Part shown: piece by piece, positions 6,498 through 57,222 of the stretch | Layout: every line of letters begins with the position of its first letter | Position numbering within the stretch: the stretch's first letter is position 1 | Assembly: GCA_903881505.1 (NCBI GenBank) | Contig: CAIRTM010000075.1 | Span: 20,878-84,877, forward strand | Direction: 5' to 3' | DNA length: 64,000 bases | DNA from: an uncultured delta proteobacterium | GTDB taxonomy: Bacteria > Desulfobacterota > WTBG01 > CAIYCZ01 > CAIRTM01 | The notes under the pieces: generated by a model | What the model was told of the DNA's origin: nothing | Seen by the model: only the letters and a program-made list of their open reading frames with translations | Databases searched by the model: none | Program-made: the position numbers and the translations under genes

Positions 6498-8261
6498 CTA
6501 GAACAACCCGTGGACCTTGCCGGTTTTGGTGTCGATGTCGATGCGGCGGAACGCCGGGTTGGAGCCCGTGCCGGGCATCAGGCTGATGGAGCCCGCGCAG
6601 GGGCACAGAAACCGAGCGCCGGAGAAAATCAAAATGTCCCTGATCGGCAGCACCCAGCCCCTGGGCACGCCCTTAAGCGAGGGGTCATGGCTCAGGCTCA
6701 GATGGGTTTTAACCATCAGCGTGGCATAGTCGGCGTACTGCGGATCGTTTTCACATATCTTTGCTTTCTGCAGGGCTTCGGGTTCCCAGAACACGCCGTC
6801 AGCTCCGTAAATTTCCTTGGCGATCAGTTCCACGCGATCGCGCAGCTTCATCTCGAGAGGGTACATGTAGGTAAAATCATTTTGCTCCTCGCATGCCTCG
6901 ATCACCGCATCAGCCAGCTCAAGCGCCCCCTCGCCGCCGCGCAGCCAGTGCTCGCTCGCGGCACAGCGCGCGCCGGCGGCCTCAGCGGCTTTTTTTACCA
7001 TGGCAACCTCGGCTTGTGTGTCCGCGCAGAACGTGTTGATGCACACGACCGGGGTAATGCCCGCTTTTTTCAGAATGCCGATGTGGTGCACCATGTTGCA
7101 CAGGCCCTGTTCCAGCAGGCGCAGGTTTTCACGCGTGTATTCCTCGGGCAGGGGCTTGCCCGGTATGACCGCCGAACCGCCGCCGTGCATTTTCAGCGCC
7201 CGTATGGTTGCGGTCAGCACCGATACATCCGGCTTCAGGCCGCTCAGGCGGCATTTCACGTTGCAGAATTTTTCAAACCCGATGTCGGCGGCAAAGCCGC
7301 TTTCGGTCACGTGATAGTCGAACAGCTTCAGCCCGATGCGGTCGGCGATAATCGATGACTGCCCCACGGCGATGTTGGCGAACGGGCCGGCATGCACCAT
7401 ACAGGGCTGGTACTCGGCCGTGCACAGCAGCGTAGGGTTGATGGTATTGCGCATCCAGGCGGCCATGGCGCCGCCCACCTCGAGATCACCGGTGGTAACG
7501 GGGCGTCCCTGTTTGTCGAAGGCCACCGTGATTTTATCGAGCCGCTCGCGGAGGTCGGCCAGGTTGCGCGCTACAGAGAGAATGGCCATGCACTCGGAGG
7601 CGGCAACGATGCCGAACTTTGACTGCATGGTGAAGCCGTCATAGCGGCCGCCGATACCGATGATGATGTTGCGCAGGCTCTGGGCGCACACGTCCAGAGC
7701 CCAGCCGAATTCGACACGGGTGGGGTCGATGTCAAGGCGGCGGATGCCGCTCAGGCGCAAAAGCTGCTCGTCTGAGTAGTTGCGCTCGTGCTGCATGCGC
7801 GCGGTCAGGGCTGTCATGGCGAGGTTGTGCGCGTTCATGATGTCGTTGATGTCGCCGGTCAGGCCCAGCGAAAATTCGGTCATGGGAATCAGGAGCGCGT
7901 TGCCGCCGCCCGCGGCCGTACCCTTGACGTTCATGGTGGGACCGCCCGATGGCTGGCGCAGGGCGCCGCCCGCGCTTTTGCCGCGTTTGCCCAGGCCTTC
8001 GAGCAGGCCTATCGAGGTCGTGCTTTTGCCCTCGCCGAGAGGGGTCGGGGTAATGGCGGTAACCTCGATATACTTGCCGTCCGGCTTGTGGCGCAGGCGC
8101 TCGATGATGCGCATGAAATCAAGTTTCGCCAGCCGGCCCATAGGCAGCAGCTCGCCGTTTTCAAGGCCCAGCATGCCCTGCATGCGGGCGTGATCGGGCA
8201 TGAGCTCTTCAGCCGCCTCGGATATCTGCCAGTCCTGCAATATGCGCGGATCGTACGGCAT
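6498..8261 (-). CDS. fhs: Formate--tetrahydrofolate ligase.
   Basis: 587 aa with the hallmark [17 protein letters not shown]-loop and overall FTHFS architecture. Confidence 0.95.
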
Positions 8262-8376
8262 GAGATGGTCCCTCTGTGGTCCTGAAATTCAGCCCTGTGC
8301 TTCGTGTGCCGGCAGAAGCAACCAGGTGGACGTAAAGGCTGGTGAAGTCGTAAAAAGTTTGAAAATGTTACGCTTA

Positions 8377-8440
8377 GTCATTCCGGCGCAGGCCGGAATC
8401 CAGGGATTTAAAGTGCGCGGACAAAAAACTGGACACCAAT
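8377..8440. repeat. Palindromic intergenic element GTCATTCCGGCGCAGGCCGGAATCCAGGGATTTAAAGTG. Possibly a distant relative of the 3695/54036 repeat family.
   Basis: Begins with the same GTCATT hexamer, followed by an 8-bp hairpin ATTCCGGC/GCCGGAAT. It lies in the fhs-cysK intergenic region. Confidence 0.4.
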
Positions 8441-8611
8441 CTTAACCGGTGCGACGACTTTTTACGGCTTCATCAATAATTAACGTTCTTCGCCTGAACG
8501 TGCCTGTGGCAGTACGCGCATCAGCCGGAGAAGCGAGAACCGCTGTGCCGCACGACTATATATATAGGGAAGGCAGTATATTTCGCGGAAGTATTTTTGT
8601 CAAACCGCAAA

Positions 8612-43396: not shown

Positions 43397-44188
43397 ATGA
43401 ACACGCTGCACGGCATACCCCGTTACCGCCTGGCAGGCACGCTCGTATGCGCATGCATGCTGGCATGCCTGGCCGCGGCTGCACCGCACAGTGCCTACGG
43501 GGCATTCCCCCGGCCGCGCGGGGCTGTGAACGATTTCGCGGGCGTGCTTTCGACCGCGGCTGCCGCGCGCATGGAGGCCCTGGCAGAAGAGATTCTCCAG
43601 AAAACCGGCACGGCCGTTGTCGTGGGGGTTTTCTCCTCCCTTGACGGAAGCGATCCGGACCAGTTCGCCAATGAACTCTATGAAGCCTGGGGGATCGGCA
43701 AAAAAGGCGAAGACAAGGGCGTACTGATCATGCTGGCCGTGCAGGAGCGCCGCGTGCGCATCGAAACCGGCTACGGCGTTGAAGGCGTGCTGCCCGACGG
43801 GCTTGCCGGGAGCATCCTTGACCGCTACGTTGTACCGCAGCTCAGGCAGAACCGCTTTGACGAGGGTCTGCTCAATGCCGTGGCAGCTGTCGGACAGGTG
43901 CTTGCCCGCGATGCGGGCGTCCGGCTCACCGGCGCCGTGCAGGCCCCGGCCGCGCAGCGCAACGGTGCTTCACGGCGGCCCGGCGGGCTGATGTCATTTG
44001 TGCCCCTGATTTTCATCGCCCTGATGCTGTGTACGCGCTCGGGCAGGCGCATGCTGCCCCTGCTGCTGTTCATGGCCCTCTCGGGCGGGCGGGGCGGCGG
44101 CGGTTTCGGCGGGGGCGGGTTCAGCGGCGGTTTCGGCGGTTTCGGCGGCGGCATGTCCGGCGGAGGCGGCGCGGGACGGGGGTTTTAG
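43397..44188 (+). CDS. TPM-domain (YgcG-like) protein with signal peptide, C-terminal TM helix and Gly-rich tail.
   Basis: Has the TPM-core phrases GAVNDFAGVLS...VVVGVFSSLDG...LYEAWGIGKKGEDKGVLIMLAVQERRVRIETGYG. The C-terminal tail is GGRGGGGFGGGGFSGGFGGFGGG. Confidence 0.75.
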   Translation: MNTLHGIPRYRLAGTLVCACMLACLAAAAPHSAYGAFPRPRGAVNDFAGVLSTAAAARMEALAEEILQKTGTAVVVGVFSSLDGSDPDQFANELYEAWGIGKKGEDKGVLIMLAVQERRVRIETGYGVEGVLPDGLAGSILDRYVVPQLRQNRFDEGLLNAVAAVGQVLARDAGVRLTGAVQAPAAQRNGASRRPGGLMSFVPLIFIALMLCTRSGRRMLPLLLFMALSGGRGGGGFGGGGFSGGFGGFGGGMSGGGGAGRGF

Positions 44189-45777: not shown

Positions 45778-46542
45778 GTGCTTATAGATACCCACGCCCA
45801 TCTCGACCTTGATGACTTCGATGCCGACCGCGAAGCGGTCATAGCGCGCGCCCGCGCTGGCGGCGTCGGGCGCATCATCACCATCGGCATCGGCCTTGAC
45901 GAGTGCCGCCGGGCCATCGAGATCGCTGAAGCGCACCCGTTCATATATGCCGCCATCGGCATGCATCCGCACAACGCTTCAATGGTTGACCTGGCCGCGC
46001 TTGATTTTCTCGAAACACACGCCCGCGATACCCGCGTGGTCGCGCTTGGGGAAATAGGCCTCGATTTTTACCGCAACCGCAGCCCGCGACAAGACCAGGT
46101 GCGGGCCTTCCGCGCCCAGCTCGACCTGGCCGCTGCCCTGAAACTGCCGGTCGTGATCCACGACCGCGACGCGCACGAAGATACCCTGCGGATCCTGCGC
46201 GAGGAAAAGCCGCCCTGCGGCGGGGTGCTGCACTGTCTCTCCGGCGACACCACCATGGCGCGCGCCTGCATCGACCTTGGTTTTCTGATATCGATTCCCG
46301 GCACGATCACGTTCAAGAACGCCGCAACGCTGCACAGCGTTGTCGCTGACACGGGGCTCGAACACCTGCTGATCGAGACCGACTGCCCGTTCCTGACACC
46401 CGCGCCGCACCGCGGCAAACGCAACGAGCCGGCCTACGTGCGCTTTGTGGCGGAAAAGATCGCGGAGCTGAAAAAAACAAGCGTCGAGGACGTCATCGAG
46501 CGCACCGGCGCCAATGCCTGCCGCCTGTTCGGCCTGCGATAG
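45778..46542 (+). CDS. tatD: TatD-family metal-dependent deoxyribonuclease/hydrolase.
   Basis: (V)LIDTHAHLDLDDF...GEIGLDFY...VIHDRDAHEDTL...HCLSGD...ETDCPFLTP. GTG start. Confidence 0.85.
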   Translation: MLIDTHAHLDLDDFDADREAVIARARAGGVGRIITIGIGLDECRRAIEIAEAHPFIYAAIGMHPHNASMVDLAALDFLETHARDTRVVALGEIGLDFYRNRSPRQDQVRAFRAQLDLAAALKLPVVIHDRDAHEDTLRILREEKPPCGGVLHCLSGDTTMARACIDLGFLISIPGTITFKNAATLHSVVADTGLEHLLIETDCPFLTPAPHRGKRNEPAYVRFVAEKIAELKKTSVEDVIERTGANACRLFGLR

Positions 46543-46701
46543 GGGCGAACAGAGGTCTGCCCTCGAACATATGAAACCACGAGGGAACAGACTCAATCTG
46601 CTCCCGGGGCACTAATTGAGCTAAACGTCAAGCGTCCTGCAGAATGCGTCTCTCTAGAATGCAAAGAAGCGTCTTGCAGTGAACTGCTCATGCAATAATT
46701 T

Positions 46702-46760
46702 TACCGTGAAATCCGGTTTTTGTATGATAGAGTTCCCGTAACTTTTAACACGTGGCAGCA
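46702..46760. repeat. Repeat copy 1 of a local intergenic motif (CGTGAAATCCGG...AGTTCCCGTAACTTTTAACACGTGGCAGC).
   Basis: Related copies sit at 48310-48370 and 49405-49440. Each is 90-190 nt upstream of a + strand gene start. Confidence 0.5.
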
Positions 46761-46832
46761 TGGGGGGCTCTCGGATGCGCATCGCAAGAACTAATTGTTG
46801 CCATGTTTTCGGATGATTCCCAAGGTGGGTGT

Positions 46833-48143
46833 ATGAAAAAAAGACCGGCGCTGCTCTGTATTTTCGCATTGTTGTTGCTACTCACAAACCTTCTGCCCGC
46901 AGCACACGCCTCGACTATTTCCGCTAAACTCCGTGAACTGTACGCTGTGGGCGACTATCCTGCTATCGCAAAACTTCTTGAAAAAAGAATCGACGAAATT
47001 GAATCCGCAACCGCTGCAGGCAGCACCAAAGCCGACGGCAAAGAGATCTACAACCTACACCTGATGCTTGCGCATGTCTGCGCATGGCAGCTGGACAGGT
47101 TTAATGACGGTCTTGCAGAGTACGAAAGAGCGCTTGAGCTGAGGCGGGAACAGGAAAGGGAGGCACTGCAAAAAAAAATCGGGCCGAACATGTCAAGCCC
47201 GGCGCTCGAATATTTATTTATGGCTGGCATGTATGAACACATAAAAGATTACGCACGGGCAGTGGAATACTATCAAAAAACCCTTCAGGAGGCAAAAGCG
47301 TACAGCGATGCTTTAGCCAGCAGCGGTGAACGGGTTTTTCTGGGCAACGATCTTACGTACTTAATACAGTACGCAATCGACACCATCCAAATACAACTTC
47401 AGTCAGCAAAAACGTATACGCCTTTGGCAAAAAAAATTGACTTGATGCATGAAAGCAACCCGATGATGATGAACTTCATGTTCGCCACTGTATTTCCGGA
47501 ACAGGAATATATCTTCGAAAACAAAAGTTTTGTATTAGAAAACAATAACCTGAATATGGAGGCATTTATAAAACACAATGCCGCCAGCACGTATTCAATG
47601 TTGCTGGAAGGCGGCTTGCTGACGGGCGGTTTGACTGCAATCACTGACGATTCAATACAACGGGCCGCAGAAGCATTTCTCAAAAAATATCCTGACAGTT
47701 ACCTGTCTCTTGCGACTGGATTTTTGCTGTCCCAAAATTTTCTGAAAAATGGAGATGCCGAAAAAGCGCAATCGCATCTGGATGCGCTTAAAAAAACGGC
47801 AAAAAAAAGGAATATCGAGTTAGTTATCGAGCCGGACAAAAAGTTTGCCTCACCCGAGTCTACCTGGGAAGCCCTTCGCCAGGCTATGGCGGTCGGAGAT
47901 ATTGAAGCTGCCCTGTCATGCCACACCCCCGGTGACCCGAAATACCGAGAAATCTACAGTAAGTTTGGGCCGGAAATCTTAAAAAAAATTGGGGCGGACA
48001 TGAAGCCCATAGAAAAAATAAGTGCTGACGAACAAACAGCCAAGTATCGCGCCAACCGCAAGCACAAGGACATCGATAAGGAAATCACGTATTACGTATA
48101 CTTTGTAAAAACATACGGGGAGTGGAAAATAGAAAGCATGTGA
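46833..48143 (+). CDS. Secreted hypothetical protein (signal peptide, N-terminal TPR-like helical region, C-terminal alpha+beta domain).
   Basis: MKKRPALLCIFALLLLLTNLLPAAHAS signal peptide. Lower GC (about 45-50%) than the surrounding DNA. Flanked by copies of a short repeat. Confidence 0.6.
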   Translation: MKKRPALLCIFALLLLLTNLLPAAHASTISAKLRELYAVGDYPAIAKLLEKRIDEIESATAAGSTKADGKEIYNLHLMLAHVCAWQLDRFNDGLAEYERALELRREQEREALQKKIGPNMSSPALEYLFMAGMYEHIKDYARAVEYYQKTLQEAKAYSDALASSGERVFLGNDLTYLIQYAIDTIQIQLQSAKTYTPLAKKIDLMHESNPMMMNFMFATVFPEQEYIFENKSFVLENNNLNMEAFIKHNAASTYSMLLEGGLLTGGLTAITDDSIQRAAEAFLKKYPDSYLSLATGFLLSQNFLKNGDAEKAQSHLDALKKTAKKRNIELVIEPDKKFASPESTWEALRQAMAVGDIEAALSCHTPGDPKYREIYSKFGPEILKKIGADMKPIEKISADEQTAKYRANRKHKDIDKEITYYVYFVKTYGEWKIESM

Positions 48144-48309
48144 GAGCCTGGATGCGGCTTGAAGCATCCTGGCTACAGTGTGCTTGCTGCGAAGGCCCTG
48201 AGCATTCTGGGGGAGGTTGTTAATAAAATACACAAACATTCTCTGCCCACCCGTGTCAGAAATTGTCCTTTGTAAACAAAGTTGCTCGGAGCTGAAATGC
48301 TCCATTTTT

Positions 48310-48370
48310 CGCGTGAAAATCGCCCTCCCCTGTGGTAAAGTTCCCGATACTTTTTGATGGCTCCGCAAGA
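48310..48370. repeat. Repeat copy 2 (CGTGAAAATCGCC...AGTTCCCGATACTTTTTGATGGCTCCGC).
   Basis: Aligns with 46702-46760 at about 70% identity over about 55 nt. Confidence 0.5.
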
Positions 48371-48499
48371 AGTCGTCACACCGGTAAAAACCGGTGCCCA
48401 GTATTTCACTAACTACTTAAATTCCTGGACTCCGACCGGAGTTTATCCTGAGCACAGCCGAAGGGCCGGAAAGACTCGCAACAACTGAGGGTTTAGAAG

Positions 48500-49324
48500 A
48501 TGGCTGAACAGAAACGACGATTCACTCCGCTGCACATCGAGGCGACATCGCTTCCCGACGCCTGGTTCCAGACCGTGTACCGCTGCGTGGAACAGGGGCG
48601 CGATTTCACGATCGACCGCGGCTCGTACGCGGGCCAGAAGCGCCTTGAGTTCGACTACATCACCGTGCACATCCGCTACCCCGGCTCGCGGCCCCTGCTG
48701 CCGCAAATCCCCTCGCAGTACAACCTGCCCAACCCCGTGGCCGACGACTATCTGGACGACTACGTGCCCTATCTCATGACCGGCGCGATGCAGCCCGGCG
48801 AATCATACACCTACGGCCAGCGCATGTGCCGCTATCCGCTTGATTCGGCCTGGCATGAGTACAACAGCAAAACCAACACCGACATCCTCATCCGGGAACC
48901 CGAGGTGTGGAACAATCCCCTGATCATTATCCGGGACGGCAACGGCCTGTTCCTGAACCAGATCGAGCTTCTGATCTGGACCTACAAGAACAAGGGATTT
49001 CGCAACAACCAGATGGTGCTGCAGGTGGCCCACCCCACCGACATGCTGCTGCAGGACCCGCCCTGCCTGCGTGCGATCGACACCCGCATCCAGGACGGCA
49101 GCCTGCACTTTATCATCAACTTCCGCTCCTGGGACCTCTGGGGCGGCTTTCCCGCCAACCTTGCCGGCATGCAGATGATGAAGGAATACATCGCCTCCGA
49201 GATCGGCGTGCAGGACGGTGAAATGATCGTCTGCTCCAAGGGCCTGCACATGTACAACTATGTGTGGGAGCTGGCCGAGTGTTTGCGCGGGAAAACGATC
49301 GAAGAATTCCGCGCGGGCACATAG
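48500..49324 (+). CDS. Divergent thymidylate-synthase (ThyA) fold enzyme. Could be a pyrimidine-nucleotide C5 methylase or hydroxymethylase.
   Basis: 274 aa. The ThyA catalytic core is conserved: PPCLRAIDTRIQDGSLHFIINFRSWDLWGGFPANLAG (Cys nucleophile; RSxD...P.N.A) and GEMIVCSKGLHMYNY (the GD.H.Y.NH-like motif). YTYGQRM matches the YGKQWR motif. The N-terminal half is very divergent from canonical ThyA. Confidence 0.6.
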   Translation: MAEQKRRFTPLHIEATSLPDAWFQTVYRCVEQGRDFTIDRGSYAGQKRLEFDYITVHIRYPGSRPLLPQIPSQYNLPNPVADDYLDDYVPYLMTGAMQPGESYTYGQRMCRYPLDSAWHEYNSKTNTDILIREPEVWNNPLIIIRDGNGLFLNQIELLIWTYKNKGFRNNQMVLQVAHPTDMLLQDPPCLRAIDTRIQDGSLHFIINFRSWDLWGGFPANLAGMQMMKEYIASEIGVQDGEMIVCSKGLHMYNYVWELAECLRGKTIEEFRAGT

Positions 49325-49404
49325 CAGGCTTTTAGAAATCCCTTCAATAGGCAAACAAGCCGTTTCCCTTGCATGCGGTGACTAGGCAAACGTCAGGATT
49401 GATA

Positions 49405-49440
49405 AAAACATCTGCCCTGGCATGTGACTTTTAACACGGG
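49405..49440. repeat. Repeat copy 3 (partial): GTGACTTTTAACACGGGCAGTTACACG.
   Basis: Shares the core ACTTTTAACACG(N)GGCAG with copy 1. Confidence 0.45.
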
Positions 49441-49609
49441 CAGTTACACGCTCCGCAGGCTGTATACGAAAAATAGCGGCCCCTGTATCGAGGGTATTTT
49501 TCGTGCGGTTTTCAGCCAGGCAAAATGCATTTGCATTATTCTGTTAACATGTTATTTTCCTGACAATTATTAACTCCTTCCGCGGGTGGGTTTGCACGGG
49601 AAATCCGAT

Positions 49610-51118
49610 ATGGCAAAGACCTTTCAGCCCGGCTATGATGTGGTCGTTATCGGCAAAGGCATTGCGGGTTTAACAGCGGCCGTGAATGCCGCCGCCCGGG
49701 GAGCATCGGTAGCCCTCGTTTACCACAGCACCCTGTGTTCTTCACATCTGGCCTATGAAGGTGTCTTCCGCTTTCCGGAAAACATCGACGAACTGGACCA
49801 CATGGTCCGCGAACACGGCTGCGGTTTGGCCGACCCGAAACTGCTGGCCGCTTTTTTCCACCACTACCGGGACTTCGGTCAGGACGATCTGGAACGGATT
49901 TTCCCGCTGGCCGGTGCAAAGCCGATCGGCAAAAAACACCGGCTGGGAGGTCCCGGCATTCTGGCCGACCTGGAGCACCTGTGCAACTCGACCGGCGTCA
50001 CCTTTATTCGCGGGACAGTGGTCAAAATCGATGCGCCAGACGGGATCCTGTCCGCCGTGCGCATGTATCACGTACGGCGCCTGATCACCATACAAGCCAA
50101 AAGCGTCATTATTGCATCCGGCGGCGGCATCGGGAACATATACGGAACCTCCGATAATTGCGCAGCCTGCTGCCCTCCCGGAACGGCACTGGCCCTGAAC
50201 GCAGGCGCGCGCCTGAGGGACCTGGAATTTATCAGCTTTCATCCGTTTGGCGCAATCGGCTGCCGGACCCATGACGGCACAACACCGGTATTTACCTTTT
50301 TCAGCATAGGGGAAAATACAGAAATCTACAGCAACGAGACAAACCGCAGAATCCCTTTTATCGAAGACCTGATTGCGACAAGAACCGCCGACAAAAACCC
50401 GCATGATAACATTTTCAGGATTGCCCGTACCGTTTGGCAGAACAACGGCATCCATATATTCAAAAACATCCGCGGCAGCCTGCAGCGAATCAACCTGTCG
50501 GTTGTGGCGCACAGCCTGATCGGCGGCATTGAGGTAAACGCCGACTTTAAAACCGCTGTCAATGGCCTGTACGCAGCCGGAGAAGCGGCTGCGGGGCTGA
50601 ACGGCGCCGGCCGGCTGCCGGGCATGGCCCTGCTGGAGGGATATATTTCCGGGAAACAGGCCGGCATCAATGCCGCGGACCATGCCGGCAAAAGCGGTTT
50701 TTACCCGGTTGACCCGGACGGATTTTTCCCGGCCTCGATGCGCTTCGGCATGTTTTCAAATCTAACGGATACAATAAAACAGATCGCAGATGCAGCCCTC
50801 TTTATTGAAAGAACGGCTGCCGGGCTTCAACTCGCGCGGAAAAGGCTTCTGAAGCTCCAGTCGGGAATCCTGAAGAACCATCTCGCCCAGCATATCGAAA
50901 ACGACCTTTTAGAAACGGCCTTGGCCATGGTCGATGCTTCTCTTCTCAGAAAAGAAAGCCGGGGCAACTTTTCCCGTCAGGACTTCCCGGGTATGGATCC
51001 GGGCATGCAGCGAAACATCGTCATCCAGAAAAATCGCCCCGATTCTGAAATTACCGTCTCCTGGAGCAATGAACCTGCGGCCTTTTTGGCCTGCAGCAAC
51101 GGACAGCCGTCTTTTTGA
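49610..51118 (+). CDS. FAD-dependent oxidoreductase of the L-aspartate oxidase / fumarate reductase flavoprotein family.
   Basis: YDVVVIGKGIAGLTAAVNAA dinucleotide fold, HSLIGGIEVNADFKTAVNGLYAAGEAAAGLNGAGRLPGMALLEGYISG, and a C-terminal ...LLRKESRGNFSRQDFP. About 503 aa from ATG 49610 (or GTG 49586). Confidence 0.7.
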   Translation: MAKTFQPGYDVVVIGKGIAGLTAAVNAAARGASVALVYHSTLCSSHLAYEGVFRFPENIDELDHMVREHGCGLADPKLLAAFFHHYRDFGQDDLERIFPLAGAKPIGKKHRLGGPGILADLEHLCNSTGVTFIRGTVVKIDAPDGILSAVRMYHVRRLITIQAKSVIIASGGGIGNIYGTSDNCAACCPPGTALALNAGARLRDLEFISFHPFGAIGCRTHDGTTPVFTFFSIGENTEIYSNETNRRIPFIEDLIATRTADKNPHDNIFRIARTVWQNNGIHIFKNIRGSLQRINLSVVAHSLIGGIEVNADFKTAVNGLYAAGEAAAGLNGAGRLPGMALLEGYISGKQAGINAADHAGKSGFYPVDPDGFFPASMRFGMFSNLTDTIKQIADAALFIERTAAGLQLARKRLLKLQSGILKNHLAQHIENDLLETALAMVDASLLRKESRGNFSRQDFPGMDPGMQRNIVIQKNRPDSEITVSWSNEPAAFLACSNGQPSF

Positions 51119-51155
51119 CCGGCAAACAGACAAAAACAGCGATTCTCCAAAGCGC

Positions 51156-51878
51156 ATGCAAAAACAAACATCTGTTCCCGAACACCCGGTCATCGGCATC
51201 CTCGGCTGGGAAGACAGCAACACGGCAAGCATATACGGCAGCATCGCCGCTCCGGGCACCTTTTCGTTTCCCGTCCTGTTCATGCCCGTCACCGGGGCCT
51301 GTTATGAAACCGTTATTGCACACCCGGACCGGCGGATATTGAATGCGATGCTTGCGGCAGCCAGGCACATGGAAAAATCCGGCGTCAAGGCGATAACCAC
51401 CAGCTGCGGGTTCAACGCCATATTCCAGTCCGACCTTGCCGGAGCGGTTTCTGTGCCGGTAGTTACGTCCACCCTGCTGCTGATCCCGTTTATCGCCGGC
51501 GCCATCGGCGGCGCAAAAAGGATCGGCATTATAACTGCCGACAAAAATCACCTGACCCGCGGCCTTCTGGAAAAATCAGGGGTTTCCGGCCAGACGCCTC
51601 TGTGTGTCTACGGCATAGAAAAAACCGCAGCCTATCCCCATACCTGCCAGAATGCGCGGCCCGAACTGGTGGACCGGGACGAGTTCCGCAGAGAGGTGAC
51701 CGGTATCGCGGAATTGATGGTTACTGAAAATCCCGACCTGGGCGCCATTGTCCTGGAGTGCACCATTTTGCACGTCTTTGCAGACGACATCAAACGTATG
51801 ACCGGGTTGCCGGTATTTGATATCGTCTCCCTCACCAATTACATGTACAACGCCGTTGCGCGCAGTACTTCACCCTGA
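51156..51878 (+). CDS. Asp/Glu/hydantoin-racemase-superfamily protein (Asp racemase / maleate isomerase / arylmalonate decarboxylase-like).
   Basis: 240 aa with two conserved Cys in ITTSCGFNA and VLECTIL contexts, and an N-terminal IGILGW. 37 nt after the flavoprotein stop. Confidence 0.6.
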   Translation: MQKQTSVPEHPVIGILGWEDSNTASIYGSIAAPGTFSFPVLFMPVTGACYETVIAHPDRRILNAMLAAARHMEKSGVKAITTSCGFNAIFQSDLAGAVSVPVVTSTLLLIPFIAGAIGGAKRIGIITADKNHLTRGLLEKSGVSGQTPLCVYGIEKTAAYPHTCQNARPELVDRDEFRREVTGIAELMVTENPDLGAIVLECTILHVFADDIKRMTGLPVFDIVSLTNYMYNAVARSTSP

Positions 51879-51902
51879 TGACCCGGTCATTCGGGATGGG
51901 GT

Positions 51903-52979
51903 GTGGGGCGGAATACTGCCGAAGGCATTGAATTTTTTATAGACAGTTCAACGACGGAAAACAGTTTGGTAGAAATTGTACACAACCCCCGACTGATCCA
52001 GACGGACCTGCCGGTATGCGCATCGGAGGGATACCTGAAGTCCGCCGCAAAAACCTACGGCTGGTTTGTCAGTCCTGAATTCATCCTGCCCTTTTATACC
52101 TTGAACCGGGCTTTCACCAGGCACATGATTTTCACTTCGGGCCCCGTAAAAAACACCCCGGCGACTACCATACAGCAGGAAAAAGCGTTTCTGACAGACG
52201 TGGTCGCCCGGTGCCGCCGCATGGCTGTCGATGTAATCAGCCAGCCGAAAACAACGGCGCTCTTTACCACGTATCCCGACGGCGCCATCTGCATCCCGTG
52301 GGGATGTTATCAGGTTGACCTTCTCAAAAGCGAAGATGAGCTGTTTTCCAGGTTACATGCCAGCCGCCGCCGTGTTATCCGGAAGGCGGAACGGGAGGGT
52401 GTTTGCATCTTCCGCGGCCCCGAACACATTAATGCCTGCCATAGGCTCATTGTACGGACGCTGGAACGACAGGGCCGGCCGGGCATACCGCATGCGCAGT
52501 TAGCGGCCTATCAGGAACATCTGCCGCTGAACGTATCATTTTATCTGGCATGCCATAACCGCGCAGACCATGCCTGCGCCGTCCTGGTACATGACAGCGA
52601 AACCGCCTTCTACATTCACGGCGGAAGTTGCACAACGCCGCATCACGGTGCTGCAAGCCTGCTTCACTGGACCGCCATGCGGGACATGAAATGCCGGGGG
52701 CTGAAGACCTACAATTTTGTCGGCGGCAGGATCCGTCCGGTCAAGGGGTCGAAGCAGGAATTCATTCAGCTGTTCAAATCACGATTCGGAACCACCTTTA
52801 CGAGCGGTTATTTATGGAAGTATCCGTTGAGCCCCTGGAAACACAGCCTGTACCGGACGTACAATCGTTTCAAAGGCCTGGCCAGGGGGAAATATCATTA
52901 CGAAGACATCATCGACAACGAGATCAGAACCGGCAGCATGGAAAAATCAACACTGATTAATAATGCTCTCCGGACATAA
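51903..52979 (+). CDS. FemAB-like / GNAT-fold acyl- or aminoacyl-transferase (pfam Acetyltransf_6-like).
   Basis: 358 aa. C-terminal ...SFYLACHNRADHACAVLVHDSETAFYIHGGS...GAASLLHWTAMRDMKCRGLKTYNFVGG matches the FemX/FemAB-family core. GTG start 24 nt after the preceding stop. Confidence 0.6.
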   Translation: MGRNTAEGIEFFIDSSTTENSLVEIVHNPRLIQTDLPVCASEGYLKSAAKTYGWFVSPEFILPFYTLNRAFTRHMIFTSGPVKNTPATTIQQEKAFLTDVVARCRRMAVDVISQPKTTALFTTYPDGAICIPWGCYQVDLLKSEDELFSRLHASRRRVIRKAEREGVCIFRGPEHINACHRLIVRTLERQGRPGIPHAQLAAYQEHLPLNVSFYLACHNRADHACAVLVHDSETAFYIHGGSCTTPHHGAASLLHWTAMRDMKCRGLKTYNFVGGRIRPVKGSKQEFIQLFKSRFGTTFTSGYLWKYPLSPWKHSLYRTYNRFKGLARGKYHYEDIIDNEIRTGSMEKSTLINNALRT

Positions 52980-53061
52980 TCCGGTCCGCAGGGCATATTC
53001 GGAATTTTCAAAGGTACTGCGGAACAATAACAAAAACCAACCCGTTGCAATCCACCTGTTT

Positions 53062-54006
53062 ATGAAAAAAACGATTTTAATCGTCCTGCACAAACATGAC
53101 TCGCCGCTGCAAAACTCCTGCTATGTAATCAAGTATTTCATCCAGCGATGGGCGGAACAGGGATATACCGTTTTGAGCGCTAACGGCACCGACAAAAAAA
53201 TTGATGCGGATATCGTGATCAATCATGTTGACTTAACCGTTACGCCTTCGAACTACATCCGTTATTTCAGCGCATATAACAAAAAAATTAATACGGATGT
53301 AACGGATATTTCCAAAACAGCTGTCAGCAACTGCATTTTAAAACCGGGTGCAAGCCATGCCGGTCCGGTAATTGTGAAAACGAACAATAATTGCGGCGGG
53401 CTGAGAGAAGAGAACATGCGGATGCGCTCTCGAAGCATGGCTGCCTGCGCACGAAAGATTACATCGGTTTTGTCAAACCGTATCAAGAAGGCCGAAATAC
53501 ACAATAGCGCATTGCAATCATCAGGGGTAACGCCATCAAACTGCAGACACATTGACACTGTTAAAAACTGGAACCATGTCACAACGCTGGATAACAGAAA
53601 CTATCCGATCTTTGACAGTGTCCACCAGGTACCCGCCGGCGTTTGGAATAATGAAGCTCTGGTTGTCGAACGATTTATGCCGGAACGTGACGCCGCGGGC
53701 AACTATGTATGCAGATACCTCTATTTTCTGGGAGATAAATCCTTTTGTGTTGTCACAACATCGGAAAATCCTGTCGCCAAAAGCCAGATCATCGGCAGGC
53801 AGATTCTACCGGGCCCCGGGCCGGTAGAGTTGCAACAATTTCGCAGGACATTCCGCATGGATTACGGAAGACTGGATTACACCTTAGTAGACGGCCGGGT
53901 TTGGCTGTTTGATGCCAACAGGACCCCAACGTTTTCTCCGGAAACCTATGCGACATACAGGGAGCAGATTGATGCGTTGTCGGAAGGGATACACTCATTT
54001 TTTTAG
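53062..54006 (+). CDS. ATP-grasp-fold ligase (RimK/Ddl-like), putative.
   Basis: 314 aa. C-terminal ...ALVVERFMPE...YLYFLGDK...LDYTLVDGRVWLFDANRTPTFS resembles the ATP-grasp C-domain (E/D...N metal ligands). Low GC (about 45%). Confidence 0.5.
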   Translation: MKKTILIVLHKHDSPLQNSCYVIKYFIQRWAEQGYTVLSANGTDKKIDADIVINHVDLTVTPSNYIRYFSAYNKKINTDVTDISKTAVSNCILKPGASHAGPVIVKTNNNCGGLREENMRMRSRSMAACARKITSVLSNRIKKAEIHNSALQSSGVTPSNCRHIDTVKNWNHVTTLDNRNYPIFDSVHQVPAGVWNNEALVVERFMPERDAAGNYVCRYLYFLGDKSFCVVTTSENPVAKSQIIGRQILPGPGPVELQQFRRTFRMDYGRLDYTLVDGRVWLFDANRTPTFSPETYATYREQIDALSEGIHSFF

Positions 54007-54035
54007 AGCATGTAACTAAATAGCGTAGTTTGATC

Positions 54036-54101
54036 GTCATTGCGGGCGCAGCGAGAAATCTTTATAAAAACGACAGGATATCTCCCCGCGGCAGAGATGA
54101 C
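54036..54101. repeat. Palindromic interspersed repeat copy B. GTCATTGCGGGCGCAGCGAGAAATCT...ATATCTCCCCGCGGCAGAGATGAC.
   Basis: Same termini and GAGAAATCT core as copy A at 3695-3763. Intergenic between the ATP-grasp and membrane-protein genes. Confidence 0.6.
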
Positions 54102-54180
54102 ACTGCTTATATGGTTATGGTAAAAAAAAATGCTCTAAATCATCTTCAACTTCTTATACAGGTAAAAGCTGTTTTTCCCT

Positions 54181-55086
54181 ATGGCCAAACATAAACGCCT
54201 TATCGCTTTATTCCTTATATTCATTGCCCTATTGTTTCTCTTTCGGTGGGAAGTTAAATTTGCCTTTACAGCTCTCTGCAAAGGACAGCTGCAGGAAGCA
54301 GTTACGAACTCCTCATCGCAGGAGCAAACCGCCACCCTGCCATACAAGGCACTCTACCAAGGCACGCAGGCCATCACCATCGACCGTGACAGTGCTGTTA
54401 TGAATTTCACAAGGCCTTCAGCCCTTGACCGCTTGAGTTTGCAGGAAATCGCCGACTTCCGAATGAAAAAGGTAGCCCAATACAGCTTTCTTAACATTTT
54501 TCCTCCCGGCTACAATCCGCTTGCGGGCGCAAGCGCCAGAATCTACAAAAAGATTGAGCCGGGGGCGCTTTGGGTCGGACAAACTCCTTTCTACATAGCC
54601 AATCCCTACCTGCTCATAATTTTGTCGAACGCATACCGGGTTCTGCCCATAGATCTTCCCTGCCATGACCTGTCCGTCACCTACGACAGCGCAATCATCG
54701 AAGAACGGCTGCAGGGTGCTACGGCAAAATGTTTTTTTGATCTGGTCTACGGAGAAAGTGCGGAACACCCCGGAACGCTGCGCGTCAATATGGTGAATGC
54801 GTACGACAGCGGATTTCACTATGTAAGCATTGATAAGGAACAGTCCTTAAACATACAGGCATATAAGTCTTCCGGCAACATTGTTGGCGGTCTTTTCAGC
54901 CAGCCATCTTTTTATCACAGGGGGCGGCATGGCTCTAACAATATAAGCCCCGAGGATAAAAACGGCTGGATTACTCTGCAAGAAGAAGGTGCGGCCACCA
55001 GAATATTTTTTAAACTCTGGAGAAACAAGCCTGCTTCTCCAGAAAACACCGCTGATATGCTGTATATTATTTATATTATTCCTTAG
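54181..55086 (+). CDS. Membrane-anchored hypothetical protein (N-terminal TM helix, about 270-aa extracytoplasmic domain).
   Basis: MAKHKRLIALFLIFIALLFLF signal anchor. Low GC. No recognisable motif. Confidence 0.5.
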   Translation: MAKHKRLIALFLIFIALLFLFRWEVKFAFTALCKGQLQEAVTNSSSQEQTATLPYKALYQGTQAITIDRDSAVMNFTRPSALDRLSLQEIADFRMKKVAQYSFLNIFPPGYNPLAGASARIYKKIEPGALWVGQTPFYIANPYLLIILSNAYRVLPIDLPCHDLSVTYDSAIIEERLQGATAKCFFDLVYGESAEHPGTLRVNMVNAYDSGFHYVSIDKEQSLNIQAYKSSGNIVGGLFSQPSFYHRGRHGSNNISPEDKNGWITLQEEGAATRIFFKLWRNKPASPENTADMLYIIYIIP

Positions 55087-55485
55087 GCAATGAAGCTGTG
55101 ACAACACGTGCTCTGCGGATACAACAACCATCGGACAGCAAACAACAGCCTTTCATCGTACCATCAGCAGTTTAAGAATCCATAACAGTTCAGTCCTCGT
55201 GGATAATCGGGATCAAAGGTGTCATATGTGGTGATTTGCTCATCGGCATAATACTCCGATGGCGGCGAGTTGATCTTTGGCGGCGGCCGCTTCTGCGACT
55301 CCCCCAGCCCCAGATGCTGCACTACAGAGAGGCAAAATTGTTATGTGTCAGCCAAAAGGCGACAGAACTGCATTTAGAATAATACAACTGTTGCAAAATT
55401 TGCTGCTGACGGGAAAACCTAACGGGTGAATTAGTATAACCTCGGCATAATCATTTCCGGGCGGTTTCCGTGTTAAACATAAAAA

Positions 55486-55528
55486 TACAACAGCCCCTGT
55501 GCATGATTCGCACAGGGGCTGTTTTTAT
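55486..55528. terminator. Bidirectional rho-independent terminator (CAGCCCCTGTGC-atgattc-GCACAGGGGCTG with T tracts on both sides) just 3' of groEL.
   Basis: 12-bp stem flanked by TTTTTAT on + and TGTATTTTTAT on -. Confidence 0.75.
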
Positions 55529-55551
55529 ATCAAGGCAGCGCGGCTGCTGTA

Positions 55552-57222
<1,671 letters not shown>

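Follow-up and report, generated by a model that had tools for sequence, protein, structure and literature searches.

The window analysed here, a stretch of 64,000 nucleotides from contig CAIRTM010000075.1 (assembly GCA_903881505.1) of an uncultured delta proteobacterium, carries seven plus-strand open reading frames (ORFs) between tatD and the minus-strand groEL/groES/grpE genes (Table 1). Four of them, encoding in this order a flavin adenine dinucleotide (FAD) flavoprotein, a racemase-like protein, a FemAB-family (Fem) transferase and an ATP-grasp ligase, form a rare cassette that is conserved and recurs in other genomes. The functional unit at this locus is this four-gene cassette, at positions 49610–54006, and not the six genes from a thymidylate synthase (ThyA) to a putative membrane protein that an initial annotation had described as an accessory operon. 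The six co-directional ORFs listed there at 48500–55086 are indeed present, but the segment is not directly flanked by tatD and groESL, since a further ORF of 436 aa also lies between them.

Table 1. Features of the window from tatD to the groEL/groES/grpE genes.
Feature	Position	Strand	Remark
tatD	45778–46542		PF01026, 289 bits
436-aa ORF	46833–48143	+	neighbour; low GC content, signal peptide and weak TPR-like matches
ThyA, 274 aa, archaeal-like subfamily	48500–49324	+	neighbour, outside the cassette
FAD flavoprotein, 502 aa	49610–51118	+	cassette gene 1; NadB/FrdA/SdhA superfamily
Racemase-like protein, 240 aa	51156–51878	+	cassette gene 2; Asp/Glu/hydantoin-racemase superfamily (NCBIfam PRK07475 group)
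FemAB-family (GNAT-fold) transferase	51903 or 51966 to 52979	+	cassette gene 3
ATP-grasp ligase, 314 aa	53062–54006	+	cassette gene 4
301-aa ORF, lineage-specific	54181–55086	+	outside the conserved cassette; N-terminal hydrophobic anchor
Terminator-like hairpin, bidirectional	55489–55523		between the plus-strand genes and groEL; stem of 14–15 bp, T-run on both strands
groEL/groES/grpE	from 55552	-

The spacers between the four central genes measure 37, 24 and 82 nt, as previously reported, the second one becoming 87 nt with the alternative start of the Fem gene, whose translation could begin either at GTG 51903 (358 aa) or at TTG 51966 (337 aa). For the flavoprotein gene the longest ORF begins at GTG 49586, and the ATP-grasp gene starts most likely at 53062 rather than at 52963, which is the start of its longest ORF.

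Conservation of the cassette

The four genes keep their order, their common strand and their close spacing in six genomic settings, namely the window and the loci L092/L096, L008, L093/L094, L097 and L176. The identity to the cassette proteins of the window is 80–84% in L092/L096, 59–73% in L008 and 56–70% in L093/L094 and L097, and the racemase-like protein of L176 is 46% identical. In a seventh setting, L177, the first three genes are kept and the ATP-grasp gene is replaced by that of a PP-loop ATPase. The core of the cassette would consist, thus, of the flavoprotein, the racemase-like protein and the Fem transferase together with an ATP-dependent enzyme presumably activating a carboxylate. 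The flanking genes are unrelated from setting to setting, save for the groESL side, which is shared by the window and L092. In L008 (276–5876) the cassette lies directly after genes of the futalosine pathway of menaquinone biosynthesis (two CofH_C radical-SAM proteins, two VitK2_biosynth proteins and a nucleosidase), a neighbourhood which was observed in no other cassette context.

The combination of the genes is specific, as their distant homologues show. Those of the ATP-grasp protein, with about 33% identity and from Planctomycetota, Acidobacteriota, Gammaproteobacteria and other groups, were compared at 80 genome loci, and those of the racemase-like protein at 78 metagenome loci; in neither set are the other cassette partners present. 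The recurrence in six settings with the same gene order bears out the proposal that the four central genes are one unit of unusual composition. Instead, the extension of this unit to six genes has to be abandoned, ThyA and the 301-aa ORF not being conserved with the cassette. Searches of the literature yielded no account of such a gene set, in agreement with the previous statement that it matches no described system. As for its distribution, the cassette is carried by sulfate-reducer relatives from gut metagenomes and by a scatter of other bacteria, and proteins identical to those of the window are also encoded on contigs of several gut-type metagenome assemblies.

Families of the four enzymes

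The enzyme classes first assigned to the locus were correct, as checked at the level of family and fold with Pfam, NCBIfam and PDB profiles, and the same checks set limits to several of the more specific names. The flavoprotein matched the Pfam models FAD_binding_2 (82.1 bits) and Succ_DH_flav_C (26.4 bits), both above the gathering scores. With the NCBIfam models of NadB it reached at best 156.7 bits against a cut-off of 639, and 137.4 against 452.75 bits, and in general its scores were 3–5 fold under the cut-offs for NadB and for the fumarate reductase (Frd) and succinate dehydrogenase (Sdh) flavoproteins. Orthologues 48–84% identical are present in every cassette, and a profile of five of them matched SdhA (PDB 7d6v, 1e-30) and NadB (1chu, 1e-22) and was also aligned with FrdA. 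The alignment obtained with HMMER covers residues 1–216 and 299–474, and does not include the cap domain (217–298).

Like NadB and the flavoprotein subunits of Frd and Sdh, the protein has a domain for FAD binding, a helical domain at the C-terminus and the 'RKESRG' sequence. Two His, one in 'HP(T)' and one in 'AHSLIGG', and the Arg of 'GAGRLPG' are likewise kept. It differs from all of them in the cap domain, which could not be aligned, in the absence of the catalytic Arg of 'RGEG', and in 'HPF' for 'HPT', a correspondence of residues that relies in part on the motifs known for NadB/FrdA. Moreover, in contrast to Frd and Sdh, no genes for Fe–S or membrane subunits adjoin the cassette flavoprotein. 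Judged by its sequence, it is a distinct subfamily of the NadB/FrdA/SdhA superfamily. The earlier description as NadB-like holds, therefore, for the superfamily, given the two Pfam domains and the PDB profile matches, but not for NadB itself, in view of the cut-offs, of the cap Arg and of the Thr of 'HPT'.

The racemase-like protein exceeded the Pfam threshold of PF01177 and has the two-domain racemase fold. Its score with the aspartate-racemase model TIGR00035 (21.8 bits) is below the cut-off of 93.1, and its fold is nearest to that of the hydantoin/allantoin racemases and less near to that of aspartate racemase. What remains of the designation as an Asp/Glu-racemase-like enzyme is, thus, the superfamily, and not the identity with aspartate racemase. 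Two candidate catalytic Cys are present in the protein of the window, C84 in 'TSCGFN' and C202 in 'LECT'.

The assignment of the third protein to the FemAB-like transferases was confirmed by two Pfam models, PF13480 (31.4 vs. 22 bits) and PF02388 (29.7 vs. 24 bits), both above threshold, and by matches to solved Fem enzymes. In fact, although the single sequence found no match in the PDB, the profile of a family of 70 sequences matched FemX of S. aureus (6snr, 2.9e-20), an 'aminoacyl-tRNA-dependent peptide synthase' (9wqw, 4e-17), FemA (1lrz, 5e-10) and the Weissella FemX (9e-9). The cassette protein shares the Pfam families FemAB and Acetyltransf_6 with the characterised enzymes FemX/FemA/FemB, Weissella FemX and 9wqw, the family profile matching over a range from 3e-20 to 9e-9, but it differs from them in the score with the nearest NCBIfam equivalog, the PEP-CTERM-associated FemAB, which is far under the cut-off (28 vs. 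260 bits). Among the relatives, tandem Fem–Fem proteins were observed, as well as, at 33–39% identity, fusions to a polysaccharide deacetylase (P0325, P0378) or to a GT4 glycosyltransferase (P0358, P0364), the tandem and fusion architectures listed being those of P0321, P0325, P0358, P0364 and P0378. No fusions of Fem with ATP-grasp, FAD or racemase domains, of the Rosetta-stone type, were present among 150 Fem relatives.

For the fourth protein the ATP-grasp fold was confirmed, as assigned at first, and no family model in Pfam or NCBIfam and no PDB sequence matched it. Residues K106, D272, D284 and N286, invariant in 56 sequences of the family, are candidates for binding ATP/Mg2+ (a Lys after 'VIVK' and an acidic/Asn triad). 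The nearest relatives belong to the group of RimK, LysX/ArgX and glutathione synthetase (GshB), at an identity of only 11–14%, from which the cassette protein differs by a long helical insert (110–143) and a disordered loop (146–162), and by a context with neither a LysW-type carrier nor ribosomal S6. The best match in species-representative genomes is 35% identical. At the loci of the distant homologues (L012–L091), an ORF of some 300 aa resembling a methyltransferase adjoins the gene in 18 of 83 cases and an O-methyltransferase-like ORF is nearby in 13; no conserved neighbour was found there besides the methyltransferase-like ORF. The GC content of the ATP-grasp gene is 6–10 points under that of its three partners in all the five close cassettes (window, L092, L008, L093 and L097), and this recurrence indicates that the low GC is a property of the gene. 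The orthologue of L097 (9913–10854) contains one in-frame stop and could be a pseudogene or the result of an assembly error.

The fourth gene of L176 also codes for an ATP-grasp protein of this family, though a divergent one ('DYGELDIV…IVDANSTP'). In L177, where no ATP-grasp gene was found, a PP-loop ATPase of 377 aa ('FSGGVDS'; 7332–8465) is encoded directly upstream of the three other genes and shows weak matches related to Asn-synthetase, LarE and ArgG. This protein may be a non-orthologous replacement for the carboxylate-activating step, and the exchange fits the idea that such an ATP-dependent step is required.

Neighbouring genes and history of the site

ThyA, upstream of the cassette and on the same strand, exceeds the gathering threshold of PF00303 (36.6 vs. 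24.3 bits) and is below the cut-offs of both the archaeal TIGR03283 (98.9 vs. 174.55 bits), which is the closest curated model, and the bacterial TIGR03284 (26 vs. 108.35 bits); by these scores, it is a sister subfamily to the NCBIfam equivalogs. In the alignment with solved ThyA enzymes, 'DPPCL' corresponds to 'PPCH', 'FRSWDLWGGFPANLA' to 'RSGDVGLGVPFNIAS' and 'HMYN' to 'HIYN', with the patterns 'PPC', 'RSxD..G.P.N' and 'H.YN', so that the catalytic Cys in 'PPC', the Arg/Asp/Asn binding deoxyuridine monophosphate (dUMP) and the His/Tyr motif are all present, and in 'GFPAN' the specificity position of solved ThyA is occupied by Asn, as in the dUMP type. The family is large, with more than 7000 homologues named thymidylate synthase in the source; the best 120 are 64–88% identical and include metagenome-assembled genomes labelled Thermodesulfobacteriota and Spirochaetota. 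The strong conservation of this archaeal-like subfamily across phyla suggests lateral spread.

Several lines of evidence separate ThyA from the cassette. Homologues 72–75% identical stand alone amid unrelated genes in three other genomes, and no ThyA is found in any of the six other cassette contexts, including the closest relative L092. In the window, a 285-nt AT-rich spacer precedes the flavoprotein gene, and the GC content at third codon positions (GC3) falls across it from a host-like 0.855 in ThyA to 0.65, the values being 0.78 for tatD and groEL and 0.54–0.68 for the four cassette genes. Therefore, ThyA is an independent gene of housekeeping type which is merely adjacent to the cassette, and its membership of the operon has to be rejected on synteny, composition and spacing. 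It appears as a divergent ThyA typical of its lineage, which largely corresponds to an outcome that the initial annotation itself had named as speaking against its proposal.

This bears on the idea of a six-gene pathway for a peptidyl- or modified nucleotide, in which the ThyA-fold enzyme would hydroxymethylate or methylate a pyrimidine nucleotide to be decorated by the downstream enzymes. Such a pathway would agree with the location of ThyA, upstream in the same orientation, and with its intact nucleotide-binding motifs, but the dUMP-type Asn and the separation just described make it extremely improbable; ThyA is not co-conserved with tailoring genes, as would be expected of a CMP/dCMP/UMP hydroxymethylase of a nucleoside-antibiotic cluster, and with its exclusion the hypothesis loses its first enzyme. 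To state that the link observed is one of adjacency only prevents a wrong 'peptidyl-nucleotide' annotation from spreading.

The cassette itself does not appear to be a recent arrival. In L092 it lies directly upstream of groEL–groES–grpE and of the same chemoreceptor gene as in the window, with 94% identity in GroEL, 73% in GrpE and 80–84% in the cassette. What sets the lineage of the window apart from L092 is the presence of tatD, the TPR-like ORF and ThyA on the left side, and the added 301-aa ORF. The finding that a relative so close by GroEL carries the cassette at the corresponding site beside groESL, and the lack of repeats, make a recent insertion unlikely, in disagreement with the insertion between tatD and groES that had been proposed, and fit a vertical inheritance of the cassette at this site. 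A recent genomic island was rejected as well, since no repeats flank the segment, the site is occupied in the close relative and the ATP-grasp gene is low in GC in all the close cassettes. As regards composition, the mosaic GC described earlier is real, with 51.3% at 46600–55550 against 60.4% for 1–44000 and a mean of 58.7% for the window, but the background is about 60% and not 65%. Within the segment, GC is lowest in the two lineage-specific ORFs and in the ATP-grasp gene. The dispersed repeats reported at its sides were not confirmed, direct or inverted matches there being none beyond short chance ones. The repeat hits in the region are due to coding repeats, namely short tandem repeats at 55558–55602 (GGM tail of GroEL) and at 44083–44166 (Gly-rich tail of a TPM-domain protein).

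The two lineage-specific ORFs stand at the left and right of the plus-strand group. The 436-aa ORF (GC 46%, GC3 0.51), with sub-threshold TPR matches and a hydrophobic N-terminus (residues 3–29), had matches solely in contigs of its own lineage. The 301-aa ORF matched no family in any library, is a singleton at 90% clustering and is missing from all the other cassette loci, also from the interval between cassette and groEL in L092; it can be regarded as a lineage-specific insertion or an ORFan. Its description as a membrane protein was not borne out, since it shows a single N-terminal hydrophobic anchor (residues 1–31) and no family match. A role as conserved partner of the ATP-grasp gene was considered and dismissed, since the ORFs next to the ATP-grasp gene at L009 and L010 show no relation to it.

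Scans with consensus promoters and terminators gave results at chance level. The only intergenic match to a structured RNA or riboswitch was a sub-threshold one to Thr_leader in Rfam (55403–55526, 29 vs. 55 bits), which overlaps the strong terminator-like hairpin and is probably spurious. An anti-phage defence function or a phage origin was rejected: PADLOC gave no matches, and PHROG matched only ThyA and, weakly, two further proteins, those of the flavoprotein gene and of the TPR-like ORF upstream.

Proposed function

Beyond fold and family, the function of the cassette is deduced from the established mechanisms of the enzyme classes. We give about even chances to the view that the four proteins are soluble, presumably cytoplasmic enzymes which build or modify a small compound with amide bonds. 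None of them shows a hydrophobic segment typical of transmembrane helices, except for the Rossmann βαβ region of the FAD protein and the core helix region of the racemase-like protein. Flavoproteins of the FrdA/NadB type work at the α,β positions of a carboxylate-bearing substrate, and that of the cassette, which retains the His/Arg carboxylate clamps under a different cap domain, might oxidise or reduce a carboxylate-bearing unit, Asp-, succinyl- or fumaryl-like. The racemase fold serves for inversion of a centre next to a carbonyl; accordingly with its class, the two-Cys enzyme similar to hydantoin/allantoin racemases could invert or isomerise such a stereocentre. ATP-grasp enzymes of the RimK/LysX/GshB group convert a carboxylate into an acyl-phosphate, which is then joined to an amine, and the cassette ligase may act likewise. 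Fem enzymes move an aminoacyl group from tRNA onto an amine, so that the cassette transferase would use aminoacyl-tRNA to attach an amino acid to a free amine. As acceptor, a soluble peptide-like metabolite, a nucleotide- or lipid-linked amino-sugar, or a precursor of the peptidoglycan type can be envisaged. Taken together, the four classes suggest two amide-forming steps on a tailored unit similar to an acidic amino acid, a logic with which the PP-loop protein in place of the ATP-grasp ligase in L177 agrees.

Some observations weigh against this reading. The invariant sequence 'HPFG…TTPVFTFF.IG' of the flavoprotein, without 'RGEG' and with 'HPF' replacing 'HPT', makes its reaction uncertain. 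In the racemase-like protein C84 is invariant, but C202 is replaced by Met in L176 (10001–10720) and L177 (10001–10699) and by Ser in one other relative, and the Met residues mean that a two-thiol racemisation cannot be common to all the cassettes. The loss of the second Cys in these two loci, together with the non-canonical cap domain of the flavoprotein, cautions against a simple reading as 'aspartate racemase plus aspartate oxidase'. Furthermore, the dependence of the Fem protein on aminoacyl-tRNA is presumed from its family membership, and the co-transcription of the four genes from their spacing and synteny. Finally, the seven contexts do not share any linked transporter, regulator or glycosyltransferase that would point to an acceptor.

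The same enzyme classes would be compatible with a module acting on the cell envelope, by which a D-configured acidic amino acid and a tRNA-derived amino acid are attached to a precursor of peptidoglycan, lipopolysaccharide or exopolysaccharide. In Firmicutes, an aspartate racemase, a D-Asp ligase and Fem enzymes build the peptidoglycan cross-bridges, and when the Lactococcus/Enterococcus toolkit is compared by description, the cassette has the same three classes, i.e., racemase fold, ATP-grasp and Fem. This parallel, drawn already in the initial annotation, stands for the enzyme classes. Unlike that toolkit, the cassette always includes a NadB-like flavoprotein, which an envelope module leaves without an explained role, is compact with no peptidoglycan genes nearby, and contains a racemase-like protein that fails the aspartate-racemase model and is nearest in fold to the hydantoin/allantoin racemases. 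The fusions of Fem relatives to polysaccharide deacetylase or GT4 favour the envelope weakly; in the same direction point the exopolysaccharide-linked PEP-CTERM FemAB as nearest curated model, the fact that most solved Fem relatives are transferases acting on peptidoglycan precursors, and a VanY-like M15 peptidase near the cassette in L008, on the opposite strand. Yet none of the seven contexts has a linked glycosyltransferase, flippase, Mur or polysaccharide gene, and the ATP-grasp protein shows no sequence match to any solved chain. A difference from the characterised Fem enzymes is that the closest cassette hosts resemble, by their neighbouring genes, bacteria of the sulfate-reducer type, for which peptidoglycan cross-bridges are generally not expected. 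The envelope hypothesis survives, then, as an unlikely explanation.

An even less probable one is a catabolic or salvage module, in which a compound derived from D/L amino acids would be broken down or recycled by the first two enzymes, flavoprotein and racemase-like, with a side role for the ligase-type ones. It is suggested by the distant relatives of the racemase (<50% identity), which lie beside genes of amino-acid-catabolism type (saccharopine-dehydrogenase-like, NhaC-type transporter, GntR and MttB-like). Those loci, however, have no FAD, Fem or ATP-grasp partners, the cassette is linked to no transporter or regulator, and the ATP-grasp and Fem enzymes form bonds, two such enzymes being seldom needed in a catabolic pathway.

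Returning to the synthesis of a small amide-linked compound, a partial precedent is the Ngg-type pathway for N-acetylglutaminylglutamine amide, where a GNAT-fold and a RimK-like ATP-grasp enzyme make a small cytoplasmic amide without a nonribosomal peptide synthetase (NRPS). Compared by description, the cassette differs in that its GNAT protein belongs to the Fem branch and is encoded by a separate gene, in that a flavoprotein and a racemase-fold protein are added, and in the absence of an AsnO-like amidotransferase from all the cassettes except for the PP-loop protein of L177. The component superfamilies are well known, and it is their combination that would constitute a small NRPS-independent amide-forming cluster. 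More tentatively, and with the odds in our view rather against it, the cassette may be a compact undescribed pathway of this kind, in which a Fem transferase dependent on tRNA works with a ligase of a new ATP-grasp family, in one lineage with a PP-loop amidoligase, to give a new amide compound with a D- or dehydro-amino acid, or an envelope decoration.

If a defined product is made, the cassette would represent a small portable route to amide-linked compounds, in which tRNA-dependent and acyl-phosphate steps are paired. An ATP-grasp family for which neither Pfam nor NCBIfam has a model would thereby be assigned a function. Since gut metagenomes are the source of the nearest copies, studies on host–microbe interactions could also be concerned, if gut bacteria similar to sulfate reducers produce a metabolite or a surface change by means of the cassette.

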